From Leucoraja ocellata (lineage: Eukaryota), in contig JAWMAR010000006.1 in assembly GCA_036785375.1 (NCBI GenBank), positions 6,758,001 to 6,822,000 of the forward strand: a stretch of DNA of 64,000 bases, read 5' to 3'. The translations under genes were made by a program, and so were the position numbers. Below, piece after piece: positions 2,895-56,889 of this stretch. Each line of letters starts with the position of its first letter. The stretch's first letter is position 1. Under the pieces are notes generated by a model. It worked only from the letters and a program-made list of their open reading frames with translations, did no database searches and was not told the DNA's origin.

Positions 2895-4330
2895 TATCTT
2901 AAATAATGCTATAAACCTCTATCAGGTCACCCCTGAGTTTATTTCATTTATGGGAAAAAGTCTCATCTTATCCACATCTTCCTCTTAACTCAAGCCCTCC
3001 AATCCAAGTTACATCTTTGTGGATCTTCTTTGGATCCTCTCTGGTTTAATCCCATCCTTCCCACAGCACAGCGATGGGAACTGCATACAAGTTCACAAGT
3101 TATAGTAGAATTAGGCCATTTGGCCCATCGAGTCTACTCCACTATTCAATCATGGCTGATCTCTGCCACCTAATTCCATTTTCCTGCCTTGTCCCCATAA
3201 CCCTTGATACCTGTTCTAATCAAGAACTTGTCTATCTCTGCTTTAAAAATATCCTCTAACTTGGCTTCCACAGCCCTCTATGGCAGTAAGTTCCATAGAT
3301 TAACTACCCTCTGACTAAAGAAGTTCCTCCTCAACTCCTTTTTAAAAGAGCGCCTTTTAATTCTGAAGCTACGACCTCTGGTCCTAGACTCTCCCACCAG
3401 TGGAAACATCCTTTCCACAGCCACTCTTTCTATGCCTTTCATTATTCTGTAAGTTTCAATGAGGTCCGCCCTCAAACCTCTAAACTTCATAATATCCTAA
3501 CCCACTCAATCCTGGAATCATTCTTGTAAACCTCCTCTGGACTCTTTCCATTGTCAGCACATCCTTGCTCAGATATGGGGTCCAAATCTGCTCACAGTAC
3601 TCCAAATGCAACATGACCAGTGCTTCATAGAGCCTCAGCAATACTCCACATGCAGTCTAACTAATATTTTGTACAACCATGACATAACCTTCCAAATCTT
3701 TTAAGCAACAGCAAGCCACATGTCTTCATCACCATCTTGTAAACCCATGTTGGTACCTTCGGGGAACTATATACATCTACCCCAATGTTTTATTTCCAGC
3801 AATACTACCCAGGGTCCTGCCATTCATTATTATGTCCTTGCTTGCTTGATGCTTCAAACTGCATCACTTTGCACTTGTATGAGTAAAATCCATTTACCAT
3901 TACATTGCCACGTTCCCAGTTGATCAATATCCTGTTGTAAGGTTAGGCAGCATTCCAGCATTCCTCACTGCCTACTCTCCCACCAATGTTGATGCCTTCC
4001 AGAAACGTAGTAATAATGACACCTATTTTCCTCCCCATCATGATTTAATGTGGCAGCATATTTAATCTATTGTATCTGAAGCCTGCTCTGTAGCACAGTG
4101 TTGTGACTGGAGGTGTAAGGGGCATATCTGGGCTGAGAGATGAGGTGCGGCAACAACTGAATCAGGGAAATGGAGGGAGTATCCCCATCATCATGAATTA
4201 ATGTGGCAAGCTGCAGTGGAGCGGTACCAGCCCTGTGCCACACCACTAGTCACAGAACTCCCATTTGGGAAACAATCCTTCAAAACAATCCTCTGCCTCC
4301 TACCACCAACCCAATGTCGTGTCCTCAAAT
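2895..4330 (-). mobile_element. Nested CR1/HER1-like LINE 3' fragments
   Basis: ORF 3278-3490 (LRADLIETYRIMKG...MFPLVGESRTRG...FFSQRVVNLWNLLP) is the typical CR1 ORF2 C-terminus; short-repeat tail near 3088. Confidence 0.8.
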
Positions 4331-4837
4331 TGAATTGAATACACTACATCATCAGTAAGGGTGAGTTTTAACTCGATGTCTAAATTATTGAGTAACAAAA
4401 TGGACTCCTGAAGGAATTCAGCGACTGTGGAGCGAATAGACAGACAACGTTTCTGGTCAAGAGGGTTTTCCCTCTATAGACGTTGCCGGACCCGCTGAGA
4501 TCTAGCGAAAGTTTCATTTTTGCTCAAGAATCCAGCATCTACAGTCTCTTGTGTCTGGATTATTGATGTGGGACAGGAAGACTGCACTGTCCCACCCTGT
4601 TGTGACTGCAGGTGTGAGAGGCATCGCTGGACTGAGGAATGGAGTGTTGCAACCACTGACTCAGGGGGATGGAGGGAGAACCTGGGGAATATCAGACAAC
4701 AGACGATCTGCTCATTCACGGGTTGTGTTTAACAGACCAGCCAGTGGCTGACAGTGTCACCGCCTCAACCCGACCGTGTCTGATGGCGAATGGGAGGGTT
4801 TCAGATCCGCGCTCCGGTCGCTCACTGTGACCCGCCC

Positions 4838-4876
4838 TGATTTGCACGCATTTGCTTCCTGTGTGAATGGTATAAG
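4838..4876 (+). promoter_or_regulatory. Ig light-chain V promoter: octamer variant TG-ATTTGCAC (4840-4847) and TATA-like TATAAG (4871-4876)
   Basis: One mismatch from the IgL octamer ATTTGCAT, ~110 nt upstream of the leader ATG; same variant kept at 14784-14791 in the duplicated promoter. Confidence 0.7.
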
Positions 4877-4957
4877 TGGGTTCCATCGGCAGCGGCGTCC
4901 ACAGTCTTGTCACAGATACAGCGGCTGTAGTGAGGCAGGAAACCGAGGGCAGTAACG

Positions 4958-5003
4958 ATGCAAACGCTGTGCTTTATCTGGTCTCTGGCACTGTGGCTGA
5001 GCT
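4958..5003 (+). CDS. Ig light-chain leader exon (MQTLCFIWSLALWLS)
   Basis: ATG at 4958, hydrophobic 15-aa signal peptide, phase-1 donor GTAAGT at 5004, 96-nt intron to the V exon. Confidence 0.9.
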
Positions 5004-5099
5004 GTAAGTACAGGGCTGCAAGTCAGCGGGTGTGATGTGGGCTCTAGGGGGTCACATTAAAGAGTCAATAGTTAAAATTGAATTATTTCTACTTTACAG

Positions 5100-5423
5100 C
5101 TGGGGAGAGTCAGACCGTAATCCAACCTGCGACCGTGTCGGTGAATCCAGGGGACACGGCCACGCTGGACTGCAATGTCGGAATAAAGGATACCGGATAC
5201 TCTTATTGGTACAAACAGATACCGGGATCAACTCCTCAATGGATCCTCCGGTATTATCACGGACACGACGCCCCGACCTATGGGTCTGGGTTTAGCAGCG
5301 ACCGTTTCACTTCGAAAGCCAACGGCGCCGCCACCGTTTACCAGTTGATCATAAGCAAGGTGGAGGTGAATGACGCTGCCGTCTATTACTGTATGAAGTG
5401 GTTTACAGCGAGCAGTACTTACA
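5100..5423 (+). CDS. Ig light-chain V segment, sigma-like, unrearranged, open frame
   Basis: Acceptor tttacag at 5099; TATLDC...WYKQIPG..PQWIL...D.AVYYC..W framework; long CDR2 YYHGHDAPTYGSGFSSDRFTS matches the pattern of sigma (teleost L2-type) V domains. Confidence 0.93.
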
Positions 5424-5451
5424 CACAGTGAGAGAAGGTAAAACAAAAACT
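5424..5451 (+). other. V recombination signal sequence, 12-bp spacer
   Basis: CACAGTG (5424-5430), 12-nt spacer agagaaggtaaa, ACAAAAACT (5443-5451). Confidence 0.95.
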
Positions 5452-5763
5452 GGAGGCAACAAATATGATGCACTTTACATCTTTAAATCAATGAAAACAT
5501 TTAAATCTTTCATTCTTCACAAAGTCGCTTTAATTTTATCCTTTATACGGTATTTTCCAATTTCAATATTTCTTTTTTTTGAAGTTTCAGAGCCCCACCG
5601 TCCACTGCCGGGATTCAATGCCGTTTAATGTCAAGTCTGCGATGCGGCTGTGAGTTCATCCCTTCCCCACCCACACCGGCAGGGACACTAGGGATGTGTG
5701 AAGTCGACTTTCATGCGGAAACTGGAGCGTCTGCCCGTGTTTTCTGTCTGATTCCAGGGCCCG

Positions 5764-5802
5764 GGATAACTGTCAGGGCTGAAGCCGGAACCACACACTG
5801 TG
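5764..5802 (-). other. J recombination signal: perfect heptamer, degenerate nonamer at 22/23 spacing
   Basis: CACTGTG at 5796-5802; expected nonamer position reads GATAACTGT (5765-5773, 22 spacer) or GGATAACTG (5764-5772, 23 spacer) versus GGTTTTTGT. Confidence 0.65.
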
Positions 5803-5840
5803 GGGGGTGTTCGGCCCAGGGACCAAGCTCTTTGTTACAG
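5803..5840 (+). CDS. Ig light-chain J segment (GVFGPGTKLFVT)
   Basis: FGxGTKL motif directly after the heptamer; phase-1 donor GTAAGT at 5841. Confidence 0.93.
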
Positions 5841-6366
5841 GTAAGTGTCTGGGAAATCATCCCGCAATTACTAACCGCGAGAATACGGTCAGTTGGCAAC
5901 TAATTCTTTAACCTTTATTATTACCTGGCTAATTTTATCGAGAATTTTTATTTTTCAATCCATTTGAGTTCAGTGTCCAGCACCAGTTCCAATAAATATA
6001 GTTGTGTTCAGTGAATTGTTACTTTATTTTAATGACCACATTCTCTATTTCGTGAAGCGTGTTTGATATTTCATAAAGGTACACTCTCGGTTAATCACTT
6101 CTTTGTGTGGTGTTGTTGCTCTGTCTCTGCATGTGCATGTGAATATTGTGTTTCGGAGACTAACTTCATCTCTGAGTTTGCGCGGTGTTACTCCCGTTAG
6201 TTTATCCGCTTTGTGCCGGTTTGATCCAAGTGAACGTCAGGGGTCCCAGCTTCCTAAAGTGGAGCCCGGTGTCACAGTGGGGAGAGGACATCGGCGACTG
6301 GAGACAGCCCGGGGTTGTTGAGGCAGTGGAACTATACGTTTCACTATTGTATGAGGATCCCACAGC

Positions 6367-6564
6367 GGAATCTCCCCCGGAATTTCACGGAAACTCCAAT
6401 CCTCCCGGTGACGACGAACTCTCCTGCCCAATAAAAGCCCCTCACCCAGTTCCCCAGTCCTTGCCTCCTCTCTCCTGCCATCTCTCCCCTTGACCGCCGC
6501 TCAGCGATTGCCGTCTCTGCAGCGACTGAGGTCGCAGCTCCGGGTCTGGGGAGAATCGCACCTG
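6367..6564. promoter_or_regulatory. Candidate J-C intronic enhancer: three tandem kB-like motifs and a kE2-like E-box
   Basis: GGAATCTCCC 6367-6376 (reverse GGGAGATTCC), GGAATTTCAC 6379-6388, GGAAACTCCA 6389-6398, CACCTG 6559-6564; mostly retained in the inverted copy. Confidence 0.5.
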
Positions 6565-7096
6565 CCCCCCCCCCCCCCCCCCCCCCACAGTGAATGGGAC
6601 CCGAATCCCTCGGCACCGTCACAGCTCCGTGAAGCTCAGCTGTCCTCGCCCTCTGGGGCGGTGCAGAGTTTGAGATGTGTTTATTCTCCCGGCAGCTGTG
6701 GGGGGCACAGCGGGGACATCAGTGCTGGATGGGGTGGGGCGAAGGGAAGAGGAGGAACGTGTAGCTAGTGGCACAGTGAGTGGGCACATTGATGTGACCC
6801 GGGGTCGCCCCACCAGTTGGAGTCGATTCCCCACCGGCACTCGTTGGTCCCAGGGCGAGGGGTCACCGAGTGGCTGTTGCTGTGAACCAGCGAGTTATGA
6901 GCAGGACCCTAAAACAGGAACTTGGCCTCACATTTCTCGTTCCCCATTGTGGACATCCATGGGGCGACCTCCATGGGCACCGCTCCGTCCCTCAGTGAGA
7001 CTCGGGTCCCCACTAGAGGAAGCTGCAACTGTCAAACGCTGAGATGACCGAGCTCTTCCGTCACCTGAAACATGTCTTCTCTTGTTCCAATTGCAG

Positions 7097-7419
7097 CTTC
7101 GCAGCTCCCAGACCCTTCAGTGAAACTGCTGGGGCCGTCAGACGAGGAGATGTCCGCTAAAGGAGCGGGCACCTTAGTTTGCCTGGTCAGTAAACTGTCC
7201 GCGGGCTTCCCCGCCGTCAGCTGGACAGTGGACGGGAGTCCGCCGAGCAGTGAGGTGCAAACCAGCGCGATGAGGCGGGACACGGACAACACCTTCAGTC
7301 TCAGCAGCTACCTGGCGGTGCTCGGCGCAGACTGGAGCAGTGGGAAGTTGTACTCCTGCACAGTTCAGCAAGGAGCAGCCTCGAAAATATCCGCCACAAT
7401 CACACAATCCAGCTGTTAA
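7097..7419 (+). CDS. Ig light-chain constant exon (C1-set domain)
   Basis: Acceptor ttgcag at 7096; PSVKLLGPSDEEM..GTLVCLVS...VSWTVDG...TFSLSSYL....WSSGKLYSCTV; terminal Cys then TAA; in frame with J. Confidence 0.95.
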
Positions 7420-12589: not shown

Positions 12590-13918
12590 CCCGCAATGTA
12601 TCTTCTACTTAAATGCTCTCCGCCGATCCTGCCCGACCACCTGAATACTCCCAACCGTCGTAATATTTACCTCTTTTATTATCCGACACAAACACCAAAT
12701 GTTTTATTGTCGTTTTATTATCACTATCAACCCTTCAAATAACCCGCCATTGCAGTTTATTTCTGAATTGGTCAATTCTGGTGAAAGGTCATTGCCCGCA
12801 ATGTTCAGTTTTAAAGTTCTTCACAGAGGGATTCGGGTCCCATTCACTGTGGGGGAGGGCAGGTGCGATTCTCACCAGACCCGGAGCTCCGACCTCAATC
12901 GGTGCAGCGAAGGCAATCGCTGAGCAGCGGTTCCCGCAAAGGAGCGGCGGTCAAAGGGAGAGGAGGCAAGGACTGGGGAACTGGAGAGGGGCTTTTTATT
13001 GGGCGGGTGTCTGCAGGAGAGTTCATCGTCACCGGGAGGATTGGAGTTTCCGTGAAATTCAAGGGGAGATTCCGCTGTGGGATCCCCATACAATAGTGAA
13101 ACGTGAGTTCCACTGCCTCAACAACCCCGGGTTGTCTCCAGTCGCCAATGTTCTGTCCACGCCGTGACACCGGGCCCCACTTTAGGAAGCTGGGGGCCCT
13201 CATGTTCACTTGGACAAAACCGGCACAAAAGCGGGCGAACTATAGTCTGAAACCGCGCGAACTCTGGAGAGAAGTTTGTCTCAGAAACACAATATTCACA
13301 ACAAGCACATTTTTGAATTATCAAAATGTTTCACGAAAAAGAGAGACTTGGTCATGAAAAAGCAGTACCAAAAATAGCTAAACACAACAATATTGACTCA
13401 AATAATTCAAAAATGTGCTTGTTGTGAATCGTATAACTCAATTGGATTGGAAAATCAACATTTTCTCCGTGAAATTAGCCAGGAAATAATAAAGGTTCAA
13501 GTACGTGTTGCCAGCTGACCGCATTCTCGCGGTTAGTAATTGCTGGAGGGATTTCCCATACACTTAACCGTCACAATTGCCTTCGCCTTGTTTATGAGCA
13601 ATTCGTAAACGACGAGGGAGCTGTTAAACCGCAAGGAAAAGCGGCCGCTGTTCAACTGAGACCCATAGCTTGGGCTAGTGCAGGTGTGATGGTCGGAGAC
13701 AATCCATTGCGCATTTGTTCCCGGTGTCTGCTTGTACCAGCTAACAACGTGGCCATCTTTTATATCGATGCAAAATTCCAGCGTAGCCGTGTCTCCTGGA
13801 GTCACCGACACGGCCACACGTTGAGTTCGCGTCTGACACTCCCCAGCTGTAAAAAAGCAGGAATTCAACTTTAACCATCGATTGACTTTTCAATGCGAAC
13901 TCAACAGTCCACATCACA
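12590..13918 (-). pseudogene. Inverted Ig light-chain pseudo-cluster: V fused to J tail (13846-13568), J-C intron copy, C exon deleted, leader missing
   Basis: V-like ORF 13533-13868 lacks YYC and RSS; continues into the reverse complement of 5833-6611, then jumps to the homologue of ~8044-8140; J donor GT changed to TT. Confidence 0.88.
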
Positions 13919-14539: not shown

Positions 14540-16100
14540 TAAGGCGGTGCGAGGAGCATCTCCGGACTGAGACATGGAGCGTGGCAACAACTGAATCAGG
14601 AAAATGGAGGGAGAAGGTGGGGAATCTCAGAAAACAAACGACCATTGTGTCGACCTACTCAACAGATTGTGTTTACCAGATCAGTCAGTGGCTGACATTG
14701 TCACCGCCTCAACCCGACCGTGTTTGATGGCAAATGGAAGGGTTTCAGATCCGCGCTCTGGTCGCTCAGTGTGACCCGCCCTGATTTGCACGGATTTCCT
14801 TCCTGTGTCAAAGGCTCTATGAGTGGGTTCCATCGGCAGCGGCGTCCACATTCTGTCACATTGGCTGGAGCGAGGCAGGGAGCTGAAGGCAGCAACCATG
14901 CGGACGCGGTGCTTTTTCTGAACTCTGGCAGTGGCTGGGCTGTAAATACAGACGGCAAGTCTGCCCCGCCAGCGGGTGTGATTTGGTCTCTGGGGGTCAC
15001 ATTAAAGAGTCATTGGTTAAAATTGAATTCCTGCTCTTTTACAGCTGGAGAGAGTCAGACTCTGACTCAACCTGCGACCGTGTCGGTGAATCCAGGAGAC
15101 ACGGCCACATTGAAATGTAGCATCGATATAAAGGATGGCAATTATGTTCATTGATTTAAGCATTCACCGGGAATAAATCCTCAGCGGGTCCTCCATTACT
15201 CAAGTTCACAAGTGCATAGAAACATAGAAAAATAGGTGCAGGAGGAGGCCATTGGGCCCCTTGAGCCAGCACCGCCATTCAATGTGATCATCGCTGATCA
15301 TCTAAAATCAGTGCAGATGTTATATGAGTTGAATTAGGCCATTCGGTCCATCGAGTCCACTACGCCATTCAATTATGGCTGACCTCTGCCTCTTAATCCC
15401 ATTTTCCTAATCGCATTTTCCTGCCTTCTCCTCGCAACCTTTCACTCCAGTTCTAATCAAGAATGTGCCTATCTTCGCCTTAAAAATATCAATTGAATTG
15501 GCCTCTGTAGCCTTCTGTGAAGGAATCCCACAGATTCACCACCCTCTGATTTTTCACCCTCAGAAATTTCTCCTCATCTCCTTCCTAAAACTTCCTTTAA
15601 TTCTGAGCCTATGACTTCTAGTTCTAGACTCTCTCACTAATGGAAACATCCTCTCCACATCCACTCTATCCAAGTAAAGCCTTTCACTATTCTACGTTTC
15701 AATGAGGTCCCCCCTCAAACTTCAAAACTCCAGCGAGTAGAGGCCCAGTGCTGTCAAACGCTCAACATATGCTAACCCACTCATTCCTGGAATCATTTTT
15801 GTAAACCTCCTCTGGACCCTCTCCAGAGCCAGCAGATCCATCCTCAGATATGGGGTCCAGATTTGCTCACAGTACTCCAAATGCGGCCTGACCATTACAT
15901 CTCTGTGTTTTTTTTTGTATTCCTGTCCTCTTGATATAAATGCTAGCATTGAATTTGCCTTCCTTATTACCGATTCGACTTCCAAATTAACTTTTTGGGA
16001 GTCCTGAACCAGCACTCATGTCCCATTTGCACCCCCTATTACTGGATTCTCTGGATCGAGCTGATGGATGTTCGGACCAGGACCAAGTGTCTGGGAAATC
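14540..16100 (+). pseudogene. Ig light-chain pseudogene: promoter, leader (ATG 14898, premature TGA), V 5' half (15045-15199, Trp to stop), LINE insertion, then V-end/J remnant (16031-16100)
   Basis: Colinear with 4605-5255; after the LINE reads tattactgg...tgg...ttcggaccaggaccaag then tgtctgggaaatc, matching J and the start of the J-C intron. Confidence 0.88.
15201..16015 (-). mobile_element. CR1/HER1-like LINE 3' fragment (with a second nested tail) interrupting the pseudo-V
   Basis: ORF 15722-16015 KANSMLAFISRG..VRPHLEYC.Q.W.PYLR.D..ALERVQRRFTKMIPG. Confidence 0.9.
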
Positions 16101-17429
16101 CTTTCGACTCGGTCCTGATGCAGTATCCGGATCGGAAGAATTGCTTCCTCAATTCTCACGCAGATACTGCTTGCCTCGCCCATTTCAACCAGCAGATTTA
16201 TTTTGCTGCTGATTAGATTTTTAAAATATCTATCTACACACACACTCACTCACCCACACACTCCCACTCCCCCTCCCATATCCTCTCAGTTTTCGCTGCT
16301 AATGAGGACATGGATTAAATGTTAACACAGATACGCTGATTATCGTCGGGTTCCGCTGATATCAATTATGTGTAAATCATTTAGCATCTAATAATTTGCT
16401 ATTTATTAGTGAAGTGTTTTCTCGTCCATTGGTGTTGACCTTTCTGCTACTAAATGTGGTTATTGCAAGATGCTAAAACGTCTGTCAATTTAAGGCTACG
16501 TGTTCGCCGGAGGCCAAACAGTAATAAGTTTCCGCCCAGTTGCCGGGAGATTTTTTCTGCCATTTCTAAGCGTTAATGTGGTTAGCGATAGCTAAACACA
16601 AGGGTTTCGGCCCGAAACGTTGCCTATTTCCTTCGCTCCATAGATGCTGCTGCACCCGCTGAGTTTCTCCAGCTTTTTTGTGTAACCTAATTGTTCACTC
16701 GGGTTGGGTTATTTCATTGCGTCCGACTAATGGTATTTTTGTATTGAAATGCTGATTACACTTGGTCCCGCTCTTGTTCACTCGGTGCTACTTGCTGTCG
16801 AATGTTATTACCACAGTTAATGAGAATAAAAAACCCCACAAATGCTAGAAATATCAAATCAATGCTGCAAATGCTGCAAGCACGTGGAAAGCGAAACGAT
16901 TGTCGTGTGAGGTTCGAGACTCTACGACCCCGACCTGAAACGTTAATTCTGTATAATTTTTAGCTGAGAATGAACAATTTTCCTGCTTCTCCTGCTTTAT
17001 CACAACATTTCTGTGAATTTTGCTTCAGCTTTTTACCATGCAATAAATGTTCTGTGTTGTTAATTTTGCACTGGCTGTTAATTAGTTTCTACTAATATGG
17101 TGATAAGTGCTGGTTTATTCTTTGGTCTGTTGGAGTAACTAATGATGTCGTTTTATGTTCACATGAGCGGTGACTTTGCAATGCAATTATCACCTTCCTT
17201 AAAATACTTTTGCTGGTGTTTTGAACAGTTGATGTAGACTATCTGGAACTATTATCCAAGGCTGAATGGAGAGCGGTGTTGAATTAATTTATGTGCTTAA
17301 TTTGCAGTTTATGCCCTCAACGATACTTCTCTCGCCGTCCTGCTAGTTTCATTGTTGTATCTTTTCGTGGTCACCCTTTTCCACAGCCAACGGCCACAAA
17401 CCATGGTCTCCACCTTTCCTCGATCACGG

Positions 17430-18580
17430 TTTAGTTTAGAGATATAGCGCGGAAATGAGGTCAAGTCAAGTCAAGTCAAGTCAAGTCAAGTTTATTTGTC
17501 ACATACACATAAGAGATGTGCAGTGAAATGAAAGTGGCAATGCTCGCGGAACAACAAAACAACCAAACAAATTATAAACACAATCATAACACACATATTA
17601 TTTTACATAATAAATAATAGAAGGAAAAACGTTCTGTACAGTTAGTCCCTGGTGAGAAAGGCGTTTACAGTCCGAATTGCCTCTGGGAAGAAACTCCTTC
17701 TCAACCTCTCCGTTCTCACCACATGGCAACGGAGGCGTTTGCCTGACCGTAGCGGCTGGAACAGTCCGTTGCAGGGGTGGAAGAGGTCTCTCATGATTTT
17801 GTTTGCTCTGGAGTTGCACCTCCTGTTGTATAGTTCCTGCAGGGGGGCGAGTGAAGTTCCCATAGTGCGTTTGGCCGAACGCACTACTCTCTGCAGAGCC
17901 TTCTTGTCCTTGGCAGAGCAATTCCCGAACCAGATGGTAATGTTCCCGGACAAGATGCTTTCCGCCGTTGGGTAGAAGCACTGGAGGATCCTCGGAGACA
18001 CTCTGAATTTCCTTAATTGCCTGAGGTGGTAAAGGCGCTGCCTTGCCTTACTCACCAGTGCTGAGGCGTGTGATGACCATGTCATATCCTCAGAGATGTG
18101 GACTCCCAGATATTTAAAACAGTTCACCCTATCCACAGGATCCCCATTTATACTCAATGGAGTGTACGTCCTCGGATGATGTGCCCTCCTAAAGTCCATG
18201 ATCAGCTCCTTCGTTTTTTTAATGTTCAAGAGGAGGCTGTTCTCCTGGCACCAGAGTGCTAGATCAGCCACCTCCTCCCGGTAGGCCCTCTCATCATTGT
18301 CTGAGATCAGGCCCACCACCACAGTGTCATCAGCAAACTTAATTATTGAATTGGAGCTGAACCTACCCTTCGGGCAATCGATCCCCGCACAGTAACACTA
18401 TCTTACACACACTAGGGACGAACAAACCTGTACGTCTTTGGAGTGTGGAAGCAAACTGAAGATCTCTGAGAAAACCCACGGGGAGCACATACAAACTCCG
18501 TACAGATAGCACCGTGGTCAGGATCGAACCGGGTCTCTGGCGCTGTAAGCACTGAAAGGCAACAACTCTAGCACTATGCC
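17430..18580 (-). mobile_element. V-SINE/HE1-like SINE split by a Rex1 insertion (SINE parts ~17430-17458 and ~18366-18580)
   Basis: gtttagtttagagata...gcggaaa start resumes after the Rex1 copy with gatccccgcac..aaactccgtacag..caggatcgaacc (tRNA B-box-like on the minus strand). Confidence 0.7.
17459..18362 (-). mobile_element. Rex1/Babar LINE, 5'-truncated, open RT C-terminal frame
   Basis: IIKFADDTVVVGLISDNDERAYREEV...KTKELIMDFRR...FKYLGVHISEDMTW...KARQRLYHLRQL; (CTTGA)n 3' tail at 17459-17490. Confidence 0.92.
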
Positions 18581-18959
18581 GCTTTGATTTGTGCTTCTCA
18601 AACCTTCCATTCATTTGTTGTGTGTACCCTTTTATACATCTAACCCCCCTCTTGCATGACTCTCTGATTCTCGACCCGAAATGTCACCTATCCCTTTTCT
18701 CGAGAGATGCTGCCTGACCCACGGAGTTCCCAGCATGTTGTATCTATTTCCAACACTATTAAACTGTTTGGTTAACAATGGCGGGAATATATTTATGACA
18801 TTTTATAATGTGAGTTTTTAAAGAGGTCTTGTATCAATTTGCTCATGGACCAGAGCGACGTGAAGCCTTTCCTGGTACGCTCCCTTATTTTAGCAAACGC
18901 GGCAAAGGGCTGTGAATGCATCCCAGACGCAAGAATTACGCTAAGGAGCGGGCGATAAC

Positions 18960-19322
18960 TCCTATAGAAACATATCCATTTATTAAGGGATTGGACACGC
19001 CAGATGCAGGAAACCGATGTTGGGAGAATCCAGAACCAGGGGTCACAATTTTTAGAATTAGGGATAGGCCATTTAGAACGGAGATGAGGAAAAACTTTTT
19101 CACCCAGTGTTGTGAATCTGTGGAACTCTGCGTCTCAGAAGGCAGTGGAGTGCAACTCGCTGGATGCTTTCAAGATGAGCTCTTAGCGATAGCGGAGTCA
19201 CGAGATATGGCGAGAAGGCAGGAACGGGGTACTGATTGTGGATGATCAGCCATGATCATATTGAATGGCGGTGCTGGCTCGAAGGACCGAATGGCCTGCT
19301 CTTGCACCTATTGTCTATTGTC
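18960..19322 (+). mobile_element. CR1/HER1-like LINE 3' end
   Basis: IETY..IKGLD...RPFRTEMRKNFFTQ; gatgatcagccatgatcatattgaatggcgg 3'UTR motif. Confidence 0.85.
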
Positions 19323-19567
19323 TAATATCTTGATTTTCACATTTTTGATATTTCGTTTTGTGAGTCTGTGCCTGCGATGCTGCTGCAAGGGAGGTTTCGG
19401 CGTCCCTGTACCTACCTCCCCGTACTTTTGCACCTAGCAATAAACGCGACTTGAAATATCACCACTGGGTAAAATAAAATATTTGCAAAAATGCCCAATC
19501 ATCTCCTGGGCTGCCTCGTTTAAGAAGTTTCCGGTTGTTCCAGGGGAGTTTATAACCGAGCACTTCG

Positions 19568-19895
19568 AGTTTAGAATTTTAGAGATACTGCGCGGAAACG
19601 GGCTCTTCAACCGCCGACCCCGTGTCGACCAGTGATCCCCGCTCAGTAATACTATCCCACACGCGCTCTAGGGACAATTTACAATTTTTACCGAAGCCAA
19701 TTGACCCTCAATCCTTAAACCTGATGTGAGGGGAAACCGGAGCACCCGGAGAAAACCCACGCAGTCACGGGGGCGGGGGGGGGGGGGGTGTGTACAAACT
19801 CCGTACAGACAGACAGACTGGGTAAACAGGGTCGAACCTAGGTCTCGGGCGCGGTAATATATGCACCAACTCGACCGCAGCGCCACCTTGCCGCC
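19568..19895 (-). mobile_element. V-SINE/HE1-like SINE
   Basis: Same architecture as the copies at 22525-22700 and 36768-37020 (ggaaaccggagcacccggagaaaacccacgc, aaactccgtacagac). Confidence 0.75.
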
Positions 19896-22524
19896 GACGA
19901 GTGTGTTATTCATTTCCTTAACTTTCGTGTCAGCTATCCACCAAAAATCTTTTCCAGGCTCACAGTCCGTCTTCAGTTTTTACCTCCCTCCCACCCTCGG
20001 GGTGAGATGGGGCGAGGAAACAAGCCCTCGAGTTAATGAGAACCACGAATAAAATTTAAAAAACGGATCCCCAGGGAATAGGTGTAAGTCAAATTTGTAA
20101 TGCTTCTGTCTTGACATGGTCTCCGTCAGCTGGAAGGAACGAGGCCCTGTCACTCATTCTGCCCCGCGTTTTTTAGGAGACAGCTCCCCCCCCCCCCCCC
20201 CCAAGAAACATGCCTTCTCTTGTTCCGTTGCAGCTCCGCAACTAACGCTGTGCCACCCAAATCTGCAAATTAATTTAAATTACATCATCACTTATCCCTA
20301 CAAATTTCAGTAAAAATTTTCTTTGTTTTTTTTAACAACCCTTGGCGTCTCAGCATTATTTGAAAAGCTGAAAGGAGAAGCACAACTTTTAAAATACTAA
20401 TGAAATGCTCAATAAAACGAGACCTCCTGTTTCTTCACACAATGTATTATTAACCAAGTGAGAGCCGACAGGCAGAAGAATACTGTTTAGTTTAGAGAAA
20501 GGCATTACATTTCATACAAATGTATATTATTTGATGGAAGCAATTTTAAAGGATGAAACTACATTCTGGCATGTCTGGGAGGGAGGAATGACGTGGGAAA
20601 GGTTTTAAATGGGATGAATTCCAGATGTAATGGCTATTTCTTAACTTTCCAATGTCCAACTTTTGATCGTCATTACTACTCTGGGATGTAGAAGAGATAT
20701 AGCTACTCGCAGATAGTAAAAACAAATCTTCCAGGTGTTATTTCTTGATTAATTGGTCCTTTATTGAAGTAGTACAAACAAGGAAGTGATTCTTATCAAG
20801 TATTTCTTATTCCAACACATTGTTACTTTTAATTCTTACTGTTTCATCCGTGTCATGTCAAGTCATGTGGTAAAAACTGTTGTCTCCACCATCCCTCGAG
20901 GCTAAACTGACTCCCAATCTCTGTGGCCACGCTAGCCTCCTCAGATACAGACACGCTCTTCTATGTATCAAATTCCACCAACAAGCATACAAAAAAGATG
21001 AAACTAGAAATATCTAGACATGGCCGACACCAGACGTTTGAAGAAAAATGAAATGCTTACATTACAATTCAGCAACCAATTTATTTTATATACTATAGCA
21101 GATCACACGATAACAATTTACAGAGTGAAAATCAAATACTTTATTCATGGCATGTGATTTTGAGATTTAGGTTCTTCAGTAACTGATCACTAAACTGAGT
21201 TTGAGAGTTCTTTTCCCCCACTGACTGATTGACGGCCTATGTAAAATAATTCGTAAATTGTAGGTCGTCCACTGCTCTAAAGTGAAAAACAAAATGCAAC
21301 TAGCCAATTCTTCTGCAAGATCTGAAATCAGGTTGTGATTTTGTATGTAGACTTGATCACGCAAGATATATTTGGGAAATAAATTGTAGGATTGCACATT
21401 TACATTGAAATTTCATTTCATAACGTTTCCTCTAGTTCAAACTGCAACTCAGTAAGCCTTGACCCTTGGTAAAATGGCTTGTGTTTTCAGTCAACGCAAA
21501 TCCATTTCCCAATAGTGCAATGCTGTGAAGAAGACTTCATCATTCTTAGCAGCCACCTGCAGAAGTGGGAAGGTATACACCTGCGTAAGTGAACATGGAA
21601 CAGCTTTGAGAATGCGAGCACAATCACAGGATTAAAGAGATACATTTTTGTACATCTGACTGTGGCAAAAACAAGGCATTGCAAAATTGTCTCATTGCAG
21701 AAAATGCTCAATTCAAGATTTTGAGTTCATTTGAAAACCTTCAAACGAAGCATTTATTCATGTATTTCCTATTCATTGTATGGCGTTCTATGATGTCGGA
21801 GTATTCACCAATTCAGGAGTCCAATTGCTTTTCAACAGTTTTCAGCTAAGAAGCTACTTCATTTTCACGTTCTATGTTCGTGTAGCCGATTTGTCAACAA
21901 ATACAAATCCCTTTCATTTCTTTCCAGTTGGTTTCAGCATAAAAACCGAGTTTCTTTGAAACGGCTCCAAAAGCCTGGGCTGCAGCTGCATAGGCTGCTA
22001 TGATACGCAGCACATCGATCAGGAATGTCCTGGATTAGTTCCGCAGAGCCCAATGATTTATTTGGTGGTAGTTCATGAGCTACACCTGGTGTCACTACAC
22101 ATGGAGCATACACAGGGAGAGGCAAGTATGGGTGGGGGGTGGGGAACAAAAACTCTGGATCCTTGTTTCACACAACTAATAGAAAGGGAAACATGGATGA
22201 ATCACGTTCAATGGATGAGTGGCCACATCTTGACATCTCGCAACAGAACGTGATGAAGATACTGTAATGGTTGCACATGGGAGAGGCGTCACCTTTGTGA
22301 AAGGTGAGGAAAAGGTTGAACATTAAAAAAAGGAGCAACCATTTATGATTTACAGGAGTGACCCGTTCAAAGAGACAGACATCATGTCCAGCCAATATTT
22401 ATCCTTATTTCTATATTCCATGTATTTCCATGACATAAGAGACCAGTTAAAGCATCAAGTTAACACCCGCTCAGACCAATTCCATTTAGTCAGTAATTTT
22501 TACTGTAACCTATTCTTTCCCCAT

Positions 22525-23109: not shown

Positions 23110-25953
23110 CAAGGGGTGGGGAATGTTTTCATGTTGGAAGACCGCATTAAGTAAGCTGTAATCTAATAAGGCCGCATCCAAGAAACTTCAATTAGATATA
23201 CTTCAAACTGTACATTTTGTAAAAATCAAACTACTATGTACTCAAGAAAATGAAAACATTTTGTTAATTCTAAAGTTATCTAACCTTTTAATTACTTTGT
23301 TGTGACTGCTTTTTGTGGGAAAGCATTTGAATATTTGGTTGCAACATGGGGGTACGCAGTTTCAACCGATCTTCTAGGTGGGTATCCGTCATTTGTGACC
23401 TTAAGAGCGTATTGATTTGGATTAGGTAGGAGAATGTAGACTCACAGCAATAAGTGATTGAAAAGCAAGAAAGCATTTTTCGTGCATGTTGCCGAAGACG
23501 TGGGTATTCTATTGTATTTTTCCATATTTCAATCGGATCTTTCTTAGCGTCAAATAAGGACTTTAAAATGTTATCTTCTGAGAGCTCAATCAATTCCATC
23601 TGTAGTTCTTTAGGAGCCTTGGAGACATCAACTAGGTTGAGGTTGAAATGCTAATTTGAGTGTGATGTCATGATTCTCAAAGTCAGTGAACCTTTCATGG
23701 TATTCTCTAATTAATACGTCTATAACAGCTGCATATTCTTCAAATGATTCGCATGAATCCTCCTGCTCATCAATGACCTTCGCTAACTGGGAAAATGTGC
23801 ATCCAAAATTTCATAAGAGTTTTGAAAAAAGATAGCTTTTACCTTGCAAAGAAACATTCAAGTCATTTTGCTTTGACATGATATCACACAGAAATGCAGT
23901 ATTTCTATAGAAACCACCTTTCTGATTCTGTTCCTCATGAAATTAAACTACCTGTTCTCGCCAAGATAAAATAAATTGCTAACACCTGTCCCTGCGATAG
24001 CCAACGCACTTTACAATGATACAGCAAATCCACACTGAATGCCTCATCGTCCAACTCTAGCATATTACAAAACTGACGATGCCCTGTTCCATTTGCATGA
24101 ACAATACTTATAACTTGTTGCAAAGTGTCACTTCAAATAGTAGATTTAGCACAGAGATTTTGCTGATGTAAGATACAGTGAAAAGAAATGAGAGCATCTG
24201 GATCTGGTAATACCTTTTTTATCTGTGCAATAAACCCTTCACGCTTTCCTGTCATGGGAGGTGCACTGTCTGTACATACACTCACTAAATTAAACAAATC
24301 CAGTCCAACTTCACATTTATCTTGAAAGTTGTTGAAGAAATCTATTCCTTGTGTTCTGCCCGTAAGAGTGCCCAAAGCGAGTAACTCTTCGTAGCAAAGA
24401 AAATTTTCTGTTATGGCCCGCAAATCTTCCGTTGTTATGCCGTTGGGTCCCTCGGGTACTTCCATCCTGTGCGACGTGTCCACAGGCCAGCTGCGGCCTG
24501 ATGTTCCGGCGGCCTGGCAGCGTCGCGTGTTCGATGTCATCCACGGGCTGGCTCACCCGTCTATCTGAGCTAGGTTTGCCATGGTGGCCGCGAGGTTTAT
24601 ATGGCACAGGCTGCGGACTCAAGTCGGACCTGGGCCCGGGGCGTGCATTCCGTGCCAAACATCTAAGGTACATCGAAACGTCCGGGTGCTGGTTCAAAAT
24701 GTTGCGGTGCCACGCCGGCGGTTCAAACACGTGCACATCGTGGGGCCACTGCCTCAGTCCCGCACCTGCTGACGGTGGGGGACAGTTTTGCGCGGTGGCC
24801 AGAGGCCATCCCGCTAATGGACACTTCCGCCCAGTCGTGCACTCGTGGCTAACCGCTTCGGGGTTCCTCTAGACATCACATCAAACCGGGGAGCCCAGTT
24901 CACTTCTGAACTGTGGTCCGCGATGGCCCGCCTGCTGGGGACGCAGCTCCACCATTCGACAGCGTACCATCCCCAGTCGAATGGGTTGGTGGAGCGGTTC
25001 CACTGCCGTCTGAAGGACGCCCTGAAAACTTGCCTCACGGGCCCTGACTGGATGGACGAGTTGCCATGGGTCCTGTTGGGGATTCGGACTGCCCCCAAGG
25101 AGGATTTGTCATCACCCTCGGTGGAACTGTGTATGGCGCTCCGCTCACTGTCCCCGGGGAGTTTGTCCCGGCCGATTACGGGTCCCGGTAACCACCGCCA
25201 TGTGCTGGTGCACTTGCAGGAGAGGGTTGGAGCCCTGGCTTCCGTCCCGACGTCTCGTGATGGGGTGGCCCCATCCCATGTGCCACCGGCACTGGTGGAC
25301 TGTCCGTATGTCTTTCTGCGGGATGGCCCCATCCCACAGGCCACCCTTGCAGCGCCCTTATGAAGGTCACTTTCGGGTGCTGCAGCATGGGCACACGAAA
25401 TTCGTCTTGGACTTGGGAGGCCAGCAGGAAACTGTATCCGTGGCTCGTTTAAAAACAGCCCATCTGGACCTGAGCGAGCCAGTACAGGTGGCTCAACCTC
25501 CCTGTCGCGGGCGCCCGTCGTCCCGGGTCCCCTTGAATTATTCCGGTCCGGGCAAGTCCCCTGTGCGAGGGGACGTATCTACGCGATCTGGCCGCCTCAT
25601 TCGGCGTAGAGTGAACCCTCGGCTCTGGAGGGAGGAGTTATGTGTCTCGGTGTGGGAGGCGCAGGTCACGGGGTTGACCCTTAGGGGTATTTAAGGTCGG
25701 GCAACGCCCATGACCATTTGAGGAGTAGGGAGCTGTATCTTATCGATTAAAACGCATCTCATGCACACACTTGTGTCTGCTTAGATTTTGGCTGGACTCC
25801 TGTGAGTCCCCTGTATAATACGTTCATTTTAAGATAAAAATATTAATACAAATAAAAGGATTTGTTCTACAAAATTTGGATTCATTCAAAAGGTCGCACT
25901 TAATGGGGTAGAAGGTCGCATGCGGCATTAAGGCCGCAGGTTCCCCACCCCTG
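23110..25953 (-). mobile_element. hAT (Charlie/SPIN-like) DNA transposon with TIRs and 8-bp TSD, internally disrupted
   Basis: TIR ca(a)ggggtggggaa / ttccccacccctg; TSD GTCCAGCA at 23102-23109 and 25954-25961; motifs VCTDSAPPMTG, FHCILHQQNLCA, HCKVRWLS, TYCCESTFS. Confidence 0.92.
24412..25822 (+). mobile_element. Gypsy/Ty3 LTR retrotransposon fragment: integrase, polypurine tract and short 3' LTR (~25641-25822)
   Basis: HHCC remnant (IHGLAH...CIPCQ), RFGVP..ITSNRGAQFTSELW...TAYHPQSNGLVERFH, RPYEG.F.VL; purine tract ggagggaggag before TG. Confidence 0.9.
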
Positions 25954-50323: not shown

Positions 50324-50671
<348 letters not shown>

Positions 50672-51149
50672 TTAACTCAAGAAGTTGGTGCCAAAAGCTT
50701 CAAAGTAATAAAAACAAATCGAAATTAGTAAAAATTCACACCACCTCAAAAAATCAAAAGGACACCAAAAAACTCGGGTCATAAGACAACGTGGAAGCTA
50801 ATAATTTTAAGATGCTTGATCGGAGTAGATCCATACCATGTTTGTACAAATGCACAAGTTAGCACACCTCAACTGTACCCATAAGAGTTATAATCCGATA
50901 CTATTATCCAACAATTTAATATCCTTCACTTCTACAATTAGTACAGCCAAGCAAAATCAAGTAATCTCATGTCTATTACATTCTACATGTACATAATTGC
51001 TCCTAATAACAACGTATTATGAACCCACTGGAATTTGAAAGTATTATCACCAAAGTAAACTGACCTGGTTCAAGTATGTCACCTTGATTCGAATTGGTGC
51101 TGCAACGTTTACCACATGCTAGATATAAAAGATTACACATCCTATTGAA

Positions 51150-54100
51150 AAGAGAGGCAGGTGTGCAGAGGGCCTGGGGTGGCTCTGCTGGTAAGAAATG
51201 AAATTCAGTCCTTAGTAAGGGACGACATAGGATCAGAAGATGTGGAATCCTTGTGGGTAGAGATAAGAAACTGCAAGTGTAAATAGACCTTGATGGGAGT
51301 TACATACAGGCCTAATTTGTATCCAAAATCCTAGTCAGGATGTTGGGTACAAATTACATCAGGAGATACAATCGGCACGTAAGAAAGGCAATTTTACAGT
51401 GGGTATGGGGGATTTCAATATGCAGGGTGACTGGGAAAATCACGTTGGTACTGGATCCCAAGAGAAGGAATTTGTAGAGTGCCTAAGAGATGGTTGTAGT
51501 TGAGCCTTCTAGGGAAAATGCAATTCTGGATTTGGCTTTGTGTTACAAACCGGATTTGATTAGGGAACTTAAGATAAAGGAACCACTAGGAGGTAGTGAG
51601 CATTATATGATAAAATTCAACCTGCAGTTTGAGAGTGAGAAGATGAAATCAGATGTGTCAGTATTACTATTGGATAAAGGTAACCACAGAGGCATGAGGG
51701 GGGAGCCGATTAAAATTGATTCAAAAAGGACCCTCGCAGGAATGACTGGAGCAACAATGGCAGTAGTTTCTGGGGGCAATTCAGAAAATGCAGGATCTTT
51801 TCATTCAAAAGAGAATGAAAGATTCCAAAGGGAGAATGAGGTGACCGTGGTGACGAGGGAAGTCAAAGACAGCATAAAACTAAAAGATGCATGTAATATT
51901 GCAAGGATCACTGGGAAGCTGGAGGATGAGAATATTTTAAAGACCAACAGAAAGTAAATAAAAAGGCAAATCAGGGAGAAAATATGGTAAGCTAACCAAT
52001 AATATAAGAGGATAGCAAATTTATTTTCAGATATATAAAGAGTAAACGATAGCCAAGAAAAGATAGGCTCACCTTCTTGATTAGTAAGGGTGTTAGGGGT
52101 TATGAGGCAAAGCCAGGAAAATGGGGTTGAGAGGGAAAGATAGATCAGCCATGATTGAATGGCAGAGTAGTCTTGATGGGTTGAATGGCCTTATTCTGCT
52201 CCTAGTACTTGTCAGAGATGCCAAGTTTTGTCAGAGCATTTCAGTATTCTAGTACCTGAAAATCAGTATTTTGCTGAGGAAATCAGCACTTCTACGCGGT
52301 GCCATTTTGCTGAAAAAATGTTATTTTTATGTGCAGTCATACCCATGTAAGAGTACAAGAATGTATAACTTTGCAACCAATTGACATGTCTTCTTACTTG
52401 ACAGTGCATTTCTTACTTGACAGTGCATTCATTACCATCTCTTTGTATACTGCTGTCTGAATGGCTGCTTCCTGCTTTTAGCACCAGATGATGATGTAGA
52501 AGCCATTTTGGAAGCCTCCCTCGTTCCCCCTCTCTCTCTCCCCCTCCCTCTTTCTCTCCCTCCCTCTCCCTCCCCCCCCCCCCGTCTTTCCCTCCAATCC
52601 TCCCTCTCCTTCCTTTTTTTCTCCCTCCCTCTCTTATTCCCTACCTCCCTCTCCCCCTTGAGCCCACCCACCGTTCTGTAAAATCAAGGCCAATCCCAAT
52701 GTAACTGCAATCCCCACTGGCAACCTTTCACCACTAGGCTAAAGAATAATCAAAGGCTCAACTACCATCTGGAAAGAGAATTCCAAAGACTCATTGTTAT
52801 ACGAGAATTTTCCTGAACAGTCTATGGCCATAGCGCAATGTGTAAAGCCCATAGCGCTCCAGTTGGTAGCGCTATTTTTTGAATCCATAACGCTGTAGCC
52901 GACAGCTCTTCGTTTAAATCCCCACGTGTTAAACTGACAGCGCTCTGTTTAAACCTGGAGCGGGACAGGCAGCGACTCTGGGGGACATTTCTGGTCGAGA
53001 CCCTTCTTCATATTTAACACAAAATCGTACACGTGTTCTAATCTCATCTCTGTACAAAATACGGAAAATACGTACTACTTGGCAGCTCAGACTTATGAAT
53101 GGACATTGGACTACTTGAAAATTATGCTGGAGAAGTAGTAATGGGGAATAGAGAAATGGTAGATGAATTGTATACGTTTGTGTCAGTCTTTCCAGTGGAA
53201 GATACCCATAACGTGCCTAAAATTCAGGAGGCAGAAGCGAGTGGAGTGACTATTACTAACGAGAACGTGCTTGGGAAGCTGAAAGGCGTGAAGGTGAATA
53301 AGTCGCCAGGATCAGATGGACTATACTCCAGGGTTCTGAAAGAGATAGCTTTAAAGATCGTGGAGTCATTAGTAGTAATCTTTCAAGAATCACTAGAATC
53401 AGGAGTGATCCCAGAGGACTAGAACATTGCAAATCTTACTCTGCTGTTCAAGAAGGGAGTGAGGCAGAAGAGGGGAAACTATAGGCTGGTTAGCCCAACT
53501 ACAATTTTAGATTTTAGAGTCCATTATTAAGGATAAGACGCCCGAGTACTTAGAAGCACATAAGATAGGCCGAAGTTAGCATAGCTTTATGAAGGGGAGA
53601 TCTTGCCTGAGAAAGTGAATAGTGAAAGGCCTGGATAAAGTGGATGTGGAGAGGATGTTTTCTTTTGTGGGAGAGTCTAGGACCAGAGGTAATAGCCTCA
53701 GAATTAAAGAACATTCCTTTGGGAAGAAGATGAAGAGGAATTTATTTTGTCAGAGGGTGATGAATCTGTGGAATTCATTGCCACATAAGGCTGTGGAGGC
53801 CAAGACAATGGATATGTTTAAGGCAGAAATAGATAGATACTTAATTAGTAGATGTGTCAGGGGTTATGGGTAGGCAGGAGAATGGGGTTGAGGGATAGAT
53901 AAGCCATGATTTAATGGCAGCGTAGATTTAGGCTCAAATGGTTCAATTCTGCTCCTATCACATGAACATATGAAGTAAATAGCAGGACTGACAATGGAGA
54001 GTCAGTGGAAGTTGTTTACCTGGATTTTCAGAGGCCTTTGATACGGTGTCATACGTGAGGCTGCTAAAGATGAGAGCTCATGGTATTAGAGGGAAGATAC

Positions 54101-55150
54101 TAGCATGGATAGAAGGTTGGCTGAATGGCAGAAGTCAAAGAGTGGAAATAAAGGGGGCCTATTCTGGTTGGTTGCCAGTGACTAGCGTTGTTCTGCAGGG
54201 GTCAGTGTTGGGGTCGCTATTCTTCATGTTGCATATCAATGATATGGATGATGGAAATGAAGGCTTTGCGGTCAAATATGCAGATGATACGAAGATAGGT
54301 GGAGGGGCAAGGAGTCAGCAGAAGTACTTGGACAGGTTAGGAGAATGAGCAAAGAGGTGGCAGATGGAATACAGCGTATCTAAGTGTGAGGTCATGCACG
54401 TTGGTAGTAGGAATAAAGCTTAGACTATTTTCTAAATGGGGAGAAGATTCAGAAATTGGACTGTTAAGAAACTTGGGAGTGCTGGTACAGGATTTCTAAA
54501 AGGTTAATTTGCAAGTTGAATCGATAGTAAGGCAGGCAAATGCAAAGAGAGCATTTATTTCAAGAGGACTAGAATATAAAAATAGGGATGTTAATAATGA
54601 GGCTCTATAAGGCGCTGGTATGACCGCGTGTGGAATATTGCGAGCATTTGTGGGTCTCATATCTGAGGAGGAATGTGCTGGCATTGGAGAGGGTCCTGAA
54701 GAGAATAATCCCAGGGATGGTTGGGTTAATGTATGATGCGTGTTTGACGGCACTTGGCTGTGCTCTATGGAGTTTAGAAGGATGAGGGAGGATCTCATTT
54801 AAACCGAACAGTAAAACGCCTGGATAAAGTGGATTAGGAGAGGATGTTTCCACTAGCGGGAGAATCTAAGACCAGAGGGCACAGCCTCAGAATAAAGGGT
54901 GTACCTTTAGACGGGAGATCATTTAGTCAGAGGGTGGTGAAATTGTGGAATTATTGCCACAGACAACTGTGGAGGCCAAGTAAAAGGGTATGTTTTAAGC
55001 GGAGATTGACAGATTATTGATTAGTAAAGGTGTCAAAGGTTATGGGGAGACAATAGGAGAATGGGGTGGAGAGGGAAAGATAGATCAGCCATGATTGAAT
55101 GGCAGAGTAGACTTGAAGGGGTGAATGGCCTAATTCTGCTCCTATGACAT
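51150..55150 (+). mobile_element. Fragmented CR1 LINE (endonuclease to 3' end) with nested insertions, antisense in the last ELAVL1 intron
   Basis: ORFs 51490 (ENAILDLAL), 53099 (KSPGSDGLYSRVLKE), 54046 (VLQGSVLG...KYADDTKIG), 53622 (C-terminus). Confidence 0.88.
52213..53090 (-). mobile_element. Non-autonomous DNA transposon with imperfect TIRs and a transposase N-terminal remnant
   Basis: cagagatgccaag versus cttggcagctcag; near-duplicated flanks acttgt/acttat; remnant MASTSSSGAKSRKQPFRQQYTKRW* on the minus strand. Confidence 0.55.
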
Positions 55151-56382
55151 AAATTTGCCATTTTATTTCAACTAAACAAAACAAAAAAAACCCCACCTCA
55201 TAACATCAATTAAAATGTTTCCTAACAAATACCCTTTTATGCAATTTTCCTTGAAATAAATAGAATAAATGTAATAAAATAACTAGACAGGCATTTCACT
55301 GGGAAAAATACAATGGGATTTTTAAACGTGGGAAGCAACTAAAAATGACAATGCAAATTGTGGAAAACTTAGCACATTTGTGAATATTTTAAAATCTAAA
55401 CCATATGCAACGTTGTTCCAGTCCACTTCCATTTTAGGCCACTTCCCAACTGTGAATAATTACACCTTCTCACCAGAAAAAAAAGCCACCTTCAGACTGC
55501 CACCCACTAAGGTGGCCCCAAAACAAGTCTCTACCAATTCTCTTTTCCCATGTCGGGTCATAAATATTTTAGTCAAATCATCAAGATTTAACCACCCTTG
55601 CTGGGCCAACGAGGTATTAATCTGCAAAGATAATACCTCAATGGAAGATCAATAACTCAATGAATTTGTTTCTCCCTAACCTCATAACCAAAGTGTTTTG
55701 AAATCAAAGTCCATATTCAGTCTGGGTCTTACAAAATGTGAGAGAAATCTGCTGGTGGGACTTAACCAAACTATCCAGCATTACCTAAAACAATCATTAG
55801 AGGATCTTGGAGATCAATTAATCCAACAATGCTGCCCTTTAACAAGATCCTCATAAAAATAAAATTAAGCTCAGAAATTGCTATTTGACTGAAGTATACA
55901 TTTTTTTGAAAATTCTTTAGCAAGTCCCACACTCATCACATTATTTCCTCCATAGTTGCAGAGACAATACAAAGATCAAAAGAAACAGGAAATAAAGGAA
56001 AATAGTAAACATGTCATGGTCTCCGAACTGCAAAGGTCTGCAGAGGTGCTGAAGTAATGGCTCCATCTAAATCAGAAAGGACTAGATCCATCGGATAGCT
56101 GCGAACAATTACATTTGGCCTAAAGCGGCACTACTAATTAATCCAAGATGGCTCAACCATACCCACTATTGCTGTCGGGTTTCTATAAGTGTACACAGAA
56201 CTAACTATAACAATATCTGTAAACTGAACTCAAATCCGATAAATTATTTAAGTTAGTCAAGTTCCAAATTGGTGCTCATTGAAAAGCAAATACACACATT
56301 TGGCCACATAAGATTGTTAGCATTGCACAAGAACATCTAAAGTAAAGATAGTTTAAGTCCACAAGAGACAAGCAATCATTCA

Positions 56383-56889
<507 letters not shown>

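Follow-up and report, generated by a model that had tools for sequence, protein, structure and literature searches.

Comparison of the window (the whole stretch of 64,000 nucleotides analysed here) with itself revealed three related immunoglobulin segments, here called copies 1, 2 and 3. On the forward strand, copy 1 (4958-7419) is a sigma light-chain cluster that is split but intact, and copy 2 is interrupted by a LINE. Copy 3 is a decayed sigma copy in inverted orientation (13918 to 12826) that was absent from the initial annotation of this DNA.

The intact sigma cluster and its isotype

The leader exon of copy 1 is intact (4958-5003, with a GT donor at 5004). It is preceded by a promoter region (4730-4900) in which 157 of 171 bases are identical to 14672-14850 of copy 2, and a motif scan with a pattern that we take to be that of the octamer placed an octamer-like motif at 4840. 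The V exon (5100-5423) is of the sigma type and has an open frame (Pfam V-set, 1e-14), and according to the signal scan it is followed by a V signal made up of a heptamer, a 12-base spacer and a nonamer (5424-5451). The intervening DNA between V and J, both signals included, takes up 379 bases (5424-5802, signal scan), and the J segment (GVFGPGTKLFVT) lies at 5803-5840 with a GT donor at 5841. In sigma genes the V carries a signal with a 12-base spacer and the J a signal of the 23 type. The J heptamer of copy 1 (5796-5802) is perfect, and despite this no nonamer in 5755-5802 passed the scan; the nonamer is weak, the position at a spacer of 22 agreeing in 5 of 9 bases with what we take to be the consensus. 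The C exon (7097-7419) is intact as well (Pfam C1-set, 1e-16). A chain from a short contig (P0002), with a V 97% identical to that of copy 1 and with VJ in frame, suggests that genes like copy 1 still rearrange. The stretch 4078-4179 is a 100-base duplicate of the DNA upstream of the promoter (78% to 4577-4678) which also resembles 14543-14613, and it is perhaps the remnant of another duplication.

The V of copy 1 is 90% identical to the Amblyraja, 86% to the Rhinoraja and 77% to the Leucoraja chains, which points to a skate as the source, and its C is 97-98% identical to Amblyraja and Leucoraja; three teleost chains show 49-52% identity in V and 36-39% in C. CDR1 and CDR2 align without gaps to nurse shark sigma, and human kappa chains require gaps in CDR2. 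Numbered by hand, CDR1 of copy 1 has a length of 6 and CDR2 of 8, the latter one below the published sigma range of 9-10 and both unlike sigma-2 (CDR1 8, CDR2 7), as these lengths are given in the available part of PMC5985310.

The sigma-type assignment made in the initial annotation is borne out by the identity of copy 1 to the chain named nurse shark sigma in NR (P0032; C 80%, V 60%) and by the V of copy 2, which clusters with copy 1 in a clade of skate sequences. The V protein tree has 33 rows (30 of the 58 immunoglobulin matches together with copies 1, 2 and 3) and is without a named shark kappa, lambda or sigma-2 outgroup, no chain so named being among the protein matches to the V; in it, the three copies lie in one skate clade (97/86). 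Among the top 60 PDB matches of each search there was no fish light chain; apart from one UrIg2 entry, they were antibody chains of engineered or mammalian origin. Rfam gave no match.

The sigma models of sharks, skates and rays matched in RefSeq are all automatically named lambda-like or kappa-like. Extra residues (HTLWG, HHTV, GYVW) stand before the J Phe in P0007, P0009, P0014, P0019, P0022 and P0036; these look like read-through of the J heptamer, that is, like split genes modelled with a false intron. Pristis had 7 of the sigma-like models matched, two Mobula species 8, Hemitrygon 3 and each of three skates 1, and sigma may have contracted in skates.

Elsewhere in the window, exons of a gene with an RRM domain (Pfam RRM_1) lie on the reverse strand at 50324-56889, and we take this gene to resemble ELAVL/Hu; it could be used as an anchor for synteny. 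Open frames at 24814-25694 and 23288-24552 were judged by eye to be like an LTR-retrotransposon integrase and fragments of a hAT-type transposase.

The interrupted copy 2

From the promoter through the leader and its intron to the start of CDR2, copy 2 (14546-15194) is 78.6% identical to 4611-5249 of copy 1. The promoter and 5' region (14546-14897) contains an octamer-like motif at 14784, the leader exon (14898-14941) has a stop codon and a 2-base deletion, and the leader intron (14942-15044) has kept its GT and AG. In the V exon, which runs from FR1 to the start of CDR2 (15045-15199), the conserved Trp codon has become a stop, and the following 15 bases (15200-15214, forward strand) can be read as a remnant of FR3 or as a repeat tail of the TCAAG type. 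Since the promoter and introns are kept, copy 2 is genomic and not an mRNA retrocopy, in agreement with the initial annotation. CDR2 and FR3, about 127-150 bases of V from about 5256 onward, were not found in 15200-22000, where the score equalled the null median. It had been suggested that 15201-16015 be left out and the remainder aligned to copy 1. When this was done the J and the intron were placed, but the rest was scattered and FR3 stayed empty; because CDR2 and FR3 are absent, removing the insertions does not yield a continuous VJ exon in copy 2. Their absence would be explicable by later loss.

The interrupting element is a 5'-truncated LINE (15215-16035), antisense to the immunoglobulin gene and with its 3' tail at 15215. 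We take it to belong to the CR1 clade, the database matches having named only reverse transcriptases. At E<=1e-15 the fragment matched 792 proteins among 1558 candidates, its similarity being to the C-terminal part of ORF2; PF00078 is present in most of the 120 protein matches listed, and no Pfam domain was found in the fragment itself. It matches five named elasmobranch reverse transcriptases at 50-58%, its 3' tail is common to other copies in the window, and no target-site duplication was seen flanking it. Phages and plasmids held no DNA reference for the subfamily, and among 69 loci from bacterial genome contigs there was one weak DNA match to the LINE, outside the junction. These loci (L001-L069) are vertebrate- or invertebrate-like LINE reverse transcriptases in named bacterial assemblies, dozens of them in one Metamycoplasmataceae MAG, and P0164, labelled Carnobacterium, is a similar case, which suggests host contamination.

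The LINE had been taken to end at 16015. It extends to at least 16035, because the 20 bases before the reverse transcriptase motif VLVQDSQKVN match the V in only 2 of 20, and probably to about 16052. On the reverse strand, 16053-16027 reads QRIQ-stop-stop-GVQ directly before this motif, at the place where named ray reverse transcriptases have ERIQSSEMQ, EKIQSTGVQ or EKIDSAVVQ. Against these three, 40, 3 and 449 of the 127,946 27-mers of the window score as high, and against two reverse transcriptases of another subfamily 4210 and 3245 do so, the score taking in three codons that are LINE under any reading. A continuation of the LINE past 16053 is not supported, 3927 of 5000 random pieces being as good.

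The series TAT TAC TGG ATT CTC TGG, which the initial annotation had read as a V end of the form YY(C>W)xxW, is present at 16037-16054. The 19 bases at 16036-16054 match the V end in 14 positions, the only such match in the window besides the V itself, but LINE antisense explains the motif equally well, and the bases may be LINE (reverse strand), V end (forward strand) or a homology-mediated junction of both. They match the LINE copy at 54440 in 12 of 19, and the V matches that LINE in 10 of 19 by coincidence. In a codon-profile test fed with 33 named elasmobranch sigma chains, 3-4 reverse transcriptases and window copies, the likelihood ratio of V to LINE was 0.16-7.2, with 15 of the 36 settings favouring the V and 21 the LINE; the LINE side consisted of 3-4 proteins and one window copy and was allowed the better of two end points. 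V antisense reads HFIQ-stop-stop in the frame of the LINE, so the two stops favour the V and the Arg codon favours the LINE. Among the 33 named elasmobranch sigma V, all have the Cys and 28 have Lys two residues on, and none has the Ile or Leu of copy 2 at its position. Judged from these sequence comparisons, the YYW motif is more than chance and is assignable to neither the V nor the LINE.

For the bases before J (16055-16064), the best match of 16054-16064 to V 5406-5416 is 7 of 11, which is not significant, and 16052-16066 is matched to the V end as well by 1161 of 5000 random pieces. The best V register at the joint has 7 bases trimmed and rests on that same 7/11 match, within chance. A match to a decayed heptamer before the J of copy 2 is not significant (1138 of 5000 random pieces as good). 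The stretch that had been described as being of CDR3 length is out of frame and has 25 bases from Cys to Phe, whereas P0003 and P0005, two skate chains, have 33.

The J that had been reported is present at 16065-16087: the match of J and intron to 5805-5858 beats 5000 of 5000 random window pieces, and for the J part alone no piece in 5000 scores as well. The J starts at about the coding end with TGG ATG TTC and carries a 1-base deletion and then an 18-base deletion. Gene models from Pristis and sharks which, in our own reading, continue through the J heptamer show a W-V-F start, and this fits the start in copy 2. The 7 bases before the J match the heptamer in 1 position, and in accordance with the initial annotation the scan found no recombination signal in copy 2 and there is no similarity to the V-J spacer. 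The start of the J intron had also been described as kept; 13 bases of the J-C intron (16088-16100) are indeed there, identical to 5846-5858, but the 18-base deletion, which lies between two AAG (5828-5845 in copy 1), took the end of J and the GT donor. In the alignment of 16031-16100 the J is significant, but the V end is not unambiguous. No immunoglobulin similarity was found after 16100, where 210 of 300 random pieces score as well. A decayed copy of a dispersed short repeat lies at approximately 16108-16215 on the forward strand, and for 6 of 10 copies of its family no more than 13 of 500 random pieces gave an equally good match. An origin of the J from a neighbouring short repeat was rejected: each of 11 repeat stretches is matched equally well by at least 561 of 3000 random pieces, and the J by none of 3000.

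The inverted copy 3 and the relationship of the copies

In copy 3 (reverse strand), 13918-13580 corresponds to 5031-5366 of copy 1 and 13576-12826 to 5832-6611; beyond this the similarity resumes at 8043. The first part (13577-13918) contains the end of the leader intron and the V up to FR3, with the first Cys lost, and the second (12826-13576) contains the last J bases and the J-C intron. FR3 of the V passes without a gap into the end of J; missing are the V end, both signals, the spacer and most of J. Neither breakpoint is at a coding end, the one in V lying about 50 bases and the one in J about 29 bases inward. Because the next stretch matches 8043 onward, the region of the C exon is deleted, in a further deletion of about 1,430 bases that includes the C; with about 1.4 kb lost from copy 3, long deletions do occur at this locus.

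The J-C introns of copies 1 and 3 agree in 177 of 190 bases in the 3' part (6250-6440) and in 281 of 349 in the 5' part, the stretches compared being 6250-6611 and, in copy 3, 12826-13192 (reverse strand). A kappa-B-like site (6367-6376) and an E-box-like site (6559-6566), found with patterns that we take to be those of the two elements, are kept in both copies. The conserved 3' part of the intron may be an intronic enhancer as in mammalian kappa, or the result of recent gene conversion.

Copies 2 and 3 are grouped in the V tree (97/88), with copy 3 on a long branch, copy 2 filling 48% of the columns and the bootstrap unsettled. They have a common CDR1 start, and the DNA identities are 78.3% between copies 1 and 2, 79.5% between 1 and 3 and 76.7% between 2 and 3. 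It is likely but not secure, as far as sequence can tell, that copies 2 and 3 are sister copies. For a protein orthologue of their V, a word-seeded search, weak for absence, gave 14 matches among 28 candidates, none of them from a skate. Production of a light chain from copies 2 and 3 is impossible today.

Germline joining weighed against deletion

The initial annotation had interpreted copy 2 as a germline RAG join in a sigma-type cluster. Such a join is possible, as the J stands at about its coding end without a heptamer, but the V end may equally be LINE. In our judgement the chances are even that copies 2 and 3 descend, as dead genes, from a single sigma cluster that was joined by RAG in a germ cell and later eroded. 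An eroded, shared germline join is the most economical account, and we would argue for and against it with about the same confidence; a clean germline-joined sigma ancestor is about as probable as its opposite. In this account, a sigma cluster was evidently duplicated, and the line leading to copies 2 and 3 arose next to the split copy 1. RAG would have cleaved the germ-line DNA at the two signals, and the coding ends would have been joined, with the 379 bases lost and the J untrimmed, and the joined gene would then have been duplicated in inverted orientation. Copy 2 would have received the LINE at CDR2. It would also have lost about 130-150 V bases ahead of the V end, possibly through annealing at the place where the antisense of the LINE is similar to the YYC codons, and in copy 3 a short deletion would have removed the junction. 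More deletions would have taken the J donor, the intron and the C. The damage in these last steps is visible in the DNA, and the order given is the one that we presume.

The join is favoured because neither copy 2 nor copy 3 keeps a signal or the spacer, because the J of copy 2 is real and starts at about the coding end, and because the two copies group together (97/88) and have the same CDR1 start. The 19 bases matching the V in 14 positions, unique in the window, also argue for it, as do the deletions needed, which are about 80 and 130-150 bases long with a joined ancestor and about 460 and 545 without one. In the known joints of nurse shark kappa the signals are likewise fully excised and little is trimmed, pseudogenes included, in the available text of PMC2193156. 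The join is disfavoured because the LINE explains the V-end motif as well (0.16-7.2), because the 33 sigma V show no Ile or Leu at the position of copy 2 and because the bases before J match V at chance level (1161/5000). The junction of copy 3, which is not at the coding ends, speaks against it too, as do the loss of about 1.4 kb from that copy and the weak sister grouping, to which the DNA identities give no support.

It is also possible, and not much less likely, that RAG had no part and that copies 2 and 3 are split pseudogenes with separate deletions, the YYW motif being LINE antisense. Copy 2 would then have LINE up to about 16052, and a single deletion, about 545 bases long, would have run from CDR2 to where J starts and left about 10 filler bases; copy 3 would have its own deletion of about 460 bases from the V end to the J end. 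The LINE reading is in register, with 3 (Pristis) and 40 (Mobula) of the 127,946 27-mers as high, the LINE of copy 2 is without a target-site duplication, and deletions abound at the locus, with 18 bases lost between the AAG repeats and others of about 460 and 1,430 bases. Target deletions, microhomology and extra bases are described for 5'-truncated human L1, not CR1, in the parts available of PMC2912911 and PMC1920257. However, the deletion in copy 2 must end no more than about 2 bases from where the J coding sequence starts and leave filler, a second, independent deletion of the whole spacer is required in copy 3, and the two stops in the LINE frame are the exact antisense of the Tyr-Tyr codons of V. 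The join and plain deletion were also weighed in a toy model in which deletion-length laws, filler rates and trimming are assumptions, none of them measured, and in which the motif was treated as LINE, the case least favourable to the join. The ratio of joined to split was 26-987 with power-law exponents of 1 and 1.5 (16 settings) and 1.2-48 with exponents of 0 and 0.5 (24 settings; posterior 0.06-0.95), and with priors of 0.05-0.3 the posteriors ran from 0.06 to about 1 over all settings. The joined form was preferred in 40 of 40 settings, only 1.2-fold at the low end. The ratio depends mainly on the assumed distribution of deletion lengths, and the 1.4-kb deletion of copy 3 itself points to a heavy tail.

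We find it unlikely that a germ-cell RAG cut was left without a clean joint, with the V resected to CDR2 and LINE cDNA patching it to the intact J end, and with copy 3 as a separate or derived end-joining product in which about 50 and 29 bases were resected. A single event would account for the loss of the signals and of FR3, for the exact position at which J starts and for the absence of a target-site duplication, and human L1 can enter existing breaks with deletions according to the accessible text of PMC1920257. Yet the 3' tail of the LINE is kept at 15215, like in an ordinary target-primed insertion, the resection is far longer than in the shark joints described in the available part of PMC2193156, and no such event was found in the literature search. 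An assembly error, or a somatic rearrangement carried into the assembly, is highly improbable: the region is repeat-rich, but the window contains no N, and the copies are 20-22% off copy 1 and carry stops, frameshifts and an old LINE, a divergence and decay that indicate long inheritance in the germline.

Copies 2 and 3 are thus read as dead sigma pseudogenes that have an even chance of recording germline joining, a known process, in an isotype for which it may be new. Should the join be real, RAG activity in germ cells has reached all four light-chain isotypes of sharks and skates. It would also suggest that joined sigma genes arose and were lost while a split one survived, in contrast to the sigma-2 of skates, all of which is joined; this would bear on whether germline joining is selected or a mutational by-product. 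If a RAG break was instead patched by the LINE, copy 2 would record germ-line RAG activity at sigma together with the capture of a retrotransposon at a RAG break. If there was no join, copy 2 is an ordinary decayed pseudogene and a warning that LINE antisense can mimic the YYC-xx-W motif of light chains.

Comparison with known joined genes

The available text of PMC5192425 gives lambda as joined in all cases, skate sigma-2 as joined and nurse shark kappa as joined in some genes, and describes sigma neither as joined nor as split. The accessible part of PMC4279169 gives a mix of split and joined forms for isotypes other than lambda, which may include sigma, and gar sigma-2 is joined in that of PMC5985310. 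In nurse shark kappa, about 10% of the genes are joined with the signals fully excised, 2 of 6 joined genes are pseudogenes and trimming is small (PMC2193156, part available). A joined sigma gene was not stated in the literature searched, two primary sigma papers and all supplements lying outside that scope, and the portions available of PMC3308330, PMC13320880, PMC6795676 and PMC12227049 contain no statement on one.

The LINE of copy 2 is similar to the human L1 insertions in the accessible parts of PMC2912911 and PMC1920257, being 5'-truncated, without a duplication, with flanking DNA lost and with possible homology at the junction; it differs in being CR1-type. In the NS4 kappa genes of nurse shark (including the pseudogenes R6 and R19), as described in the available part of PMC2193156, joined and split genes stand side by side as do copies 1 and 2, and these genes and copy 2 alike have kept the leader intron and promoter and have no signals or intervening DNA. 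In NS4 kappa, the VJ exon is whole and a close split gene serves for comparison (V up to 99% identical). In contrast, copy 2 is of sigma type, its FR3 is gone, the LINE lies over the joint and the nearest split gene is about 22% divergent. Skate sigma-2 (type I) and the lambda (type II) of cartilaginous fishes, in the parts available of PMC5192425 and PMC4279169, come from the same animal group and have the same proposed germ-cell RAG mechanism as is considered here. There, however, joining extends to the entire isotype, and expression is known for the lambda and skate genes, whereas copies 2 and 3 belong to sigma, an isotype whose intact gene in the window is split, and the candidates for joining are dead.
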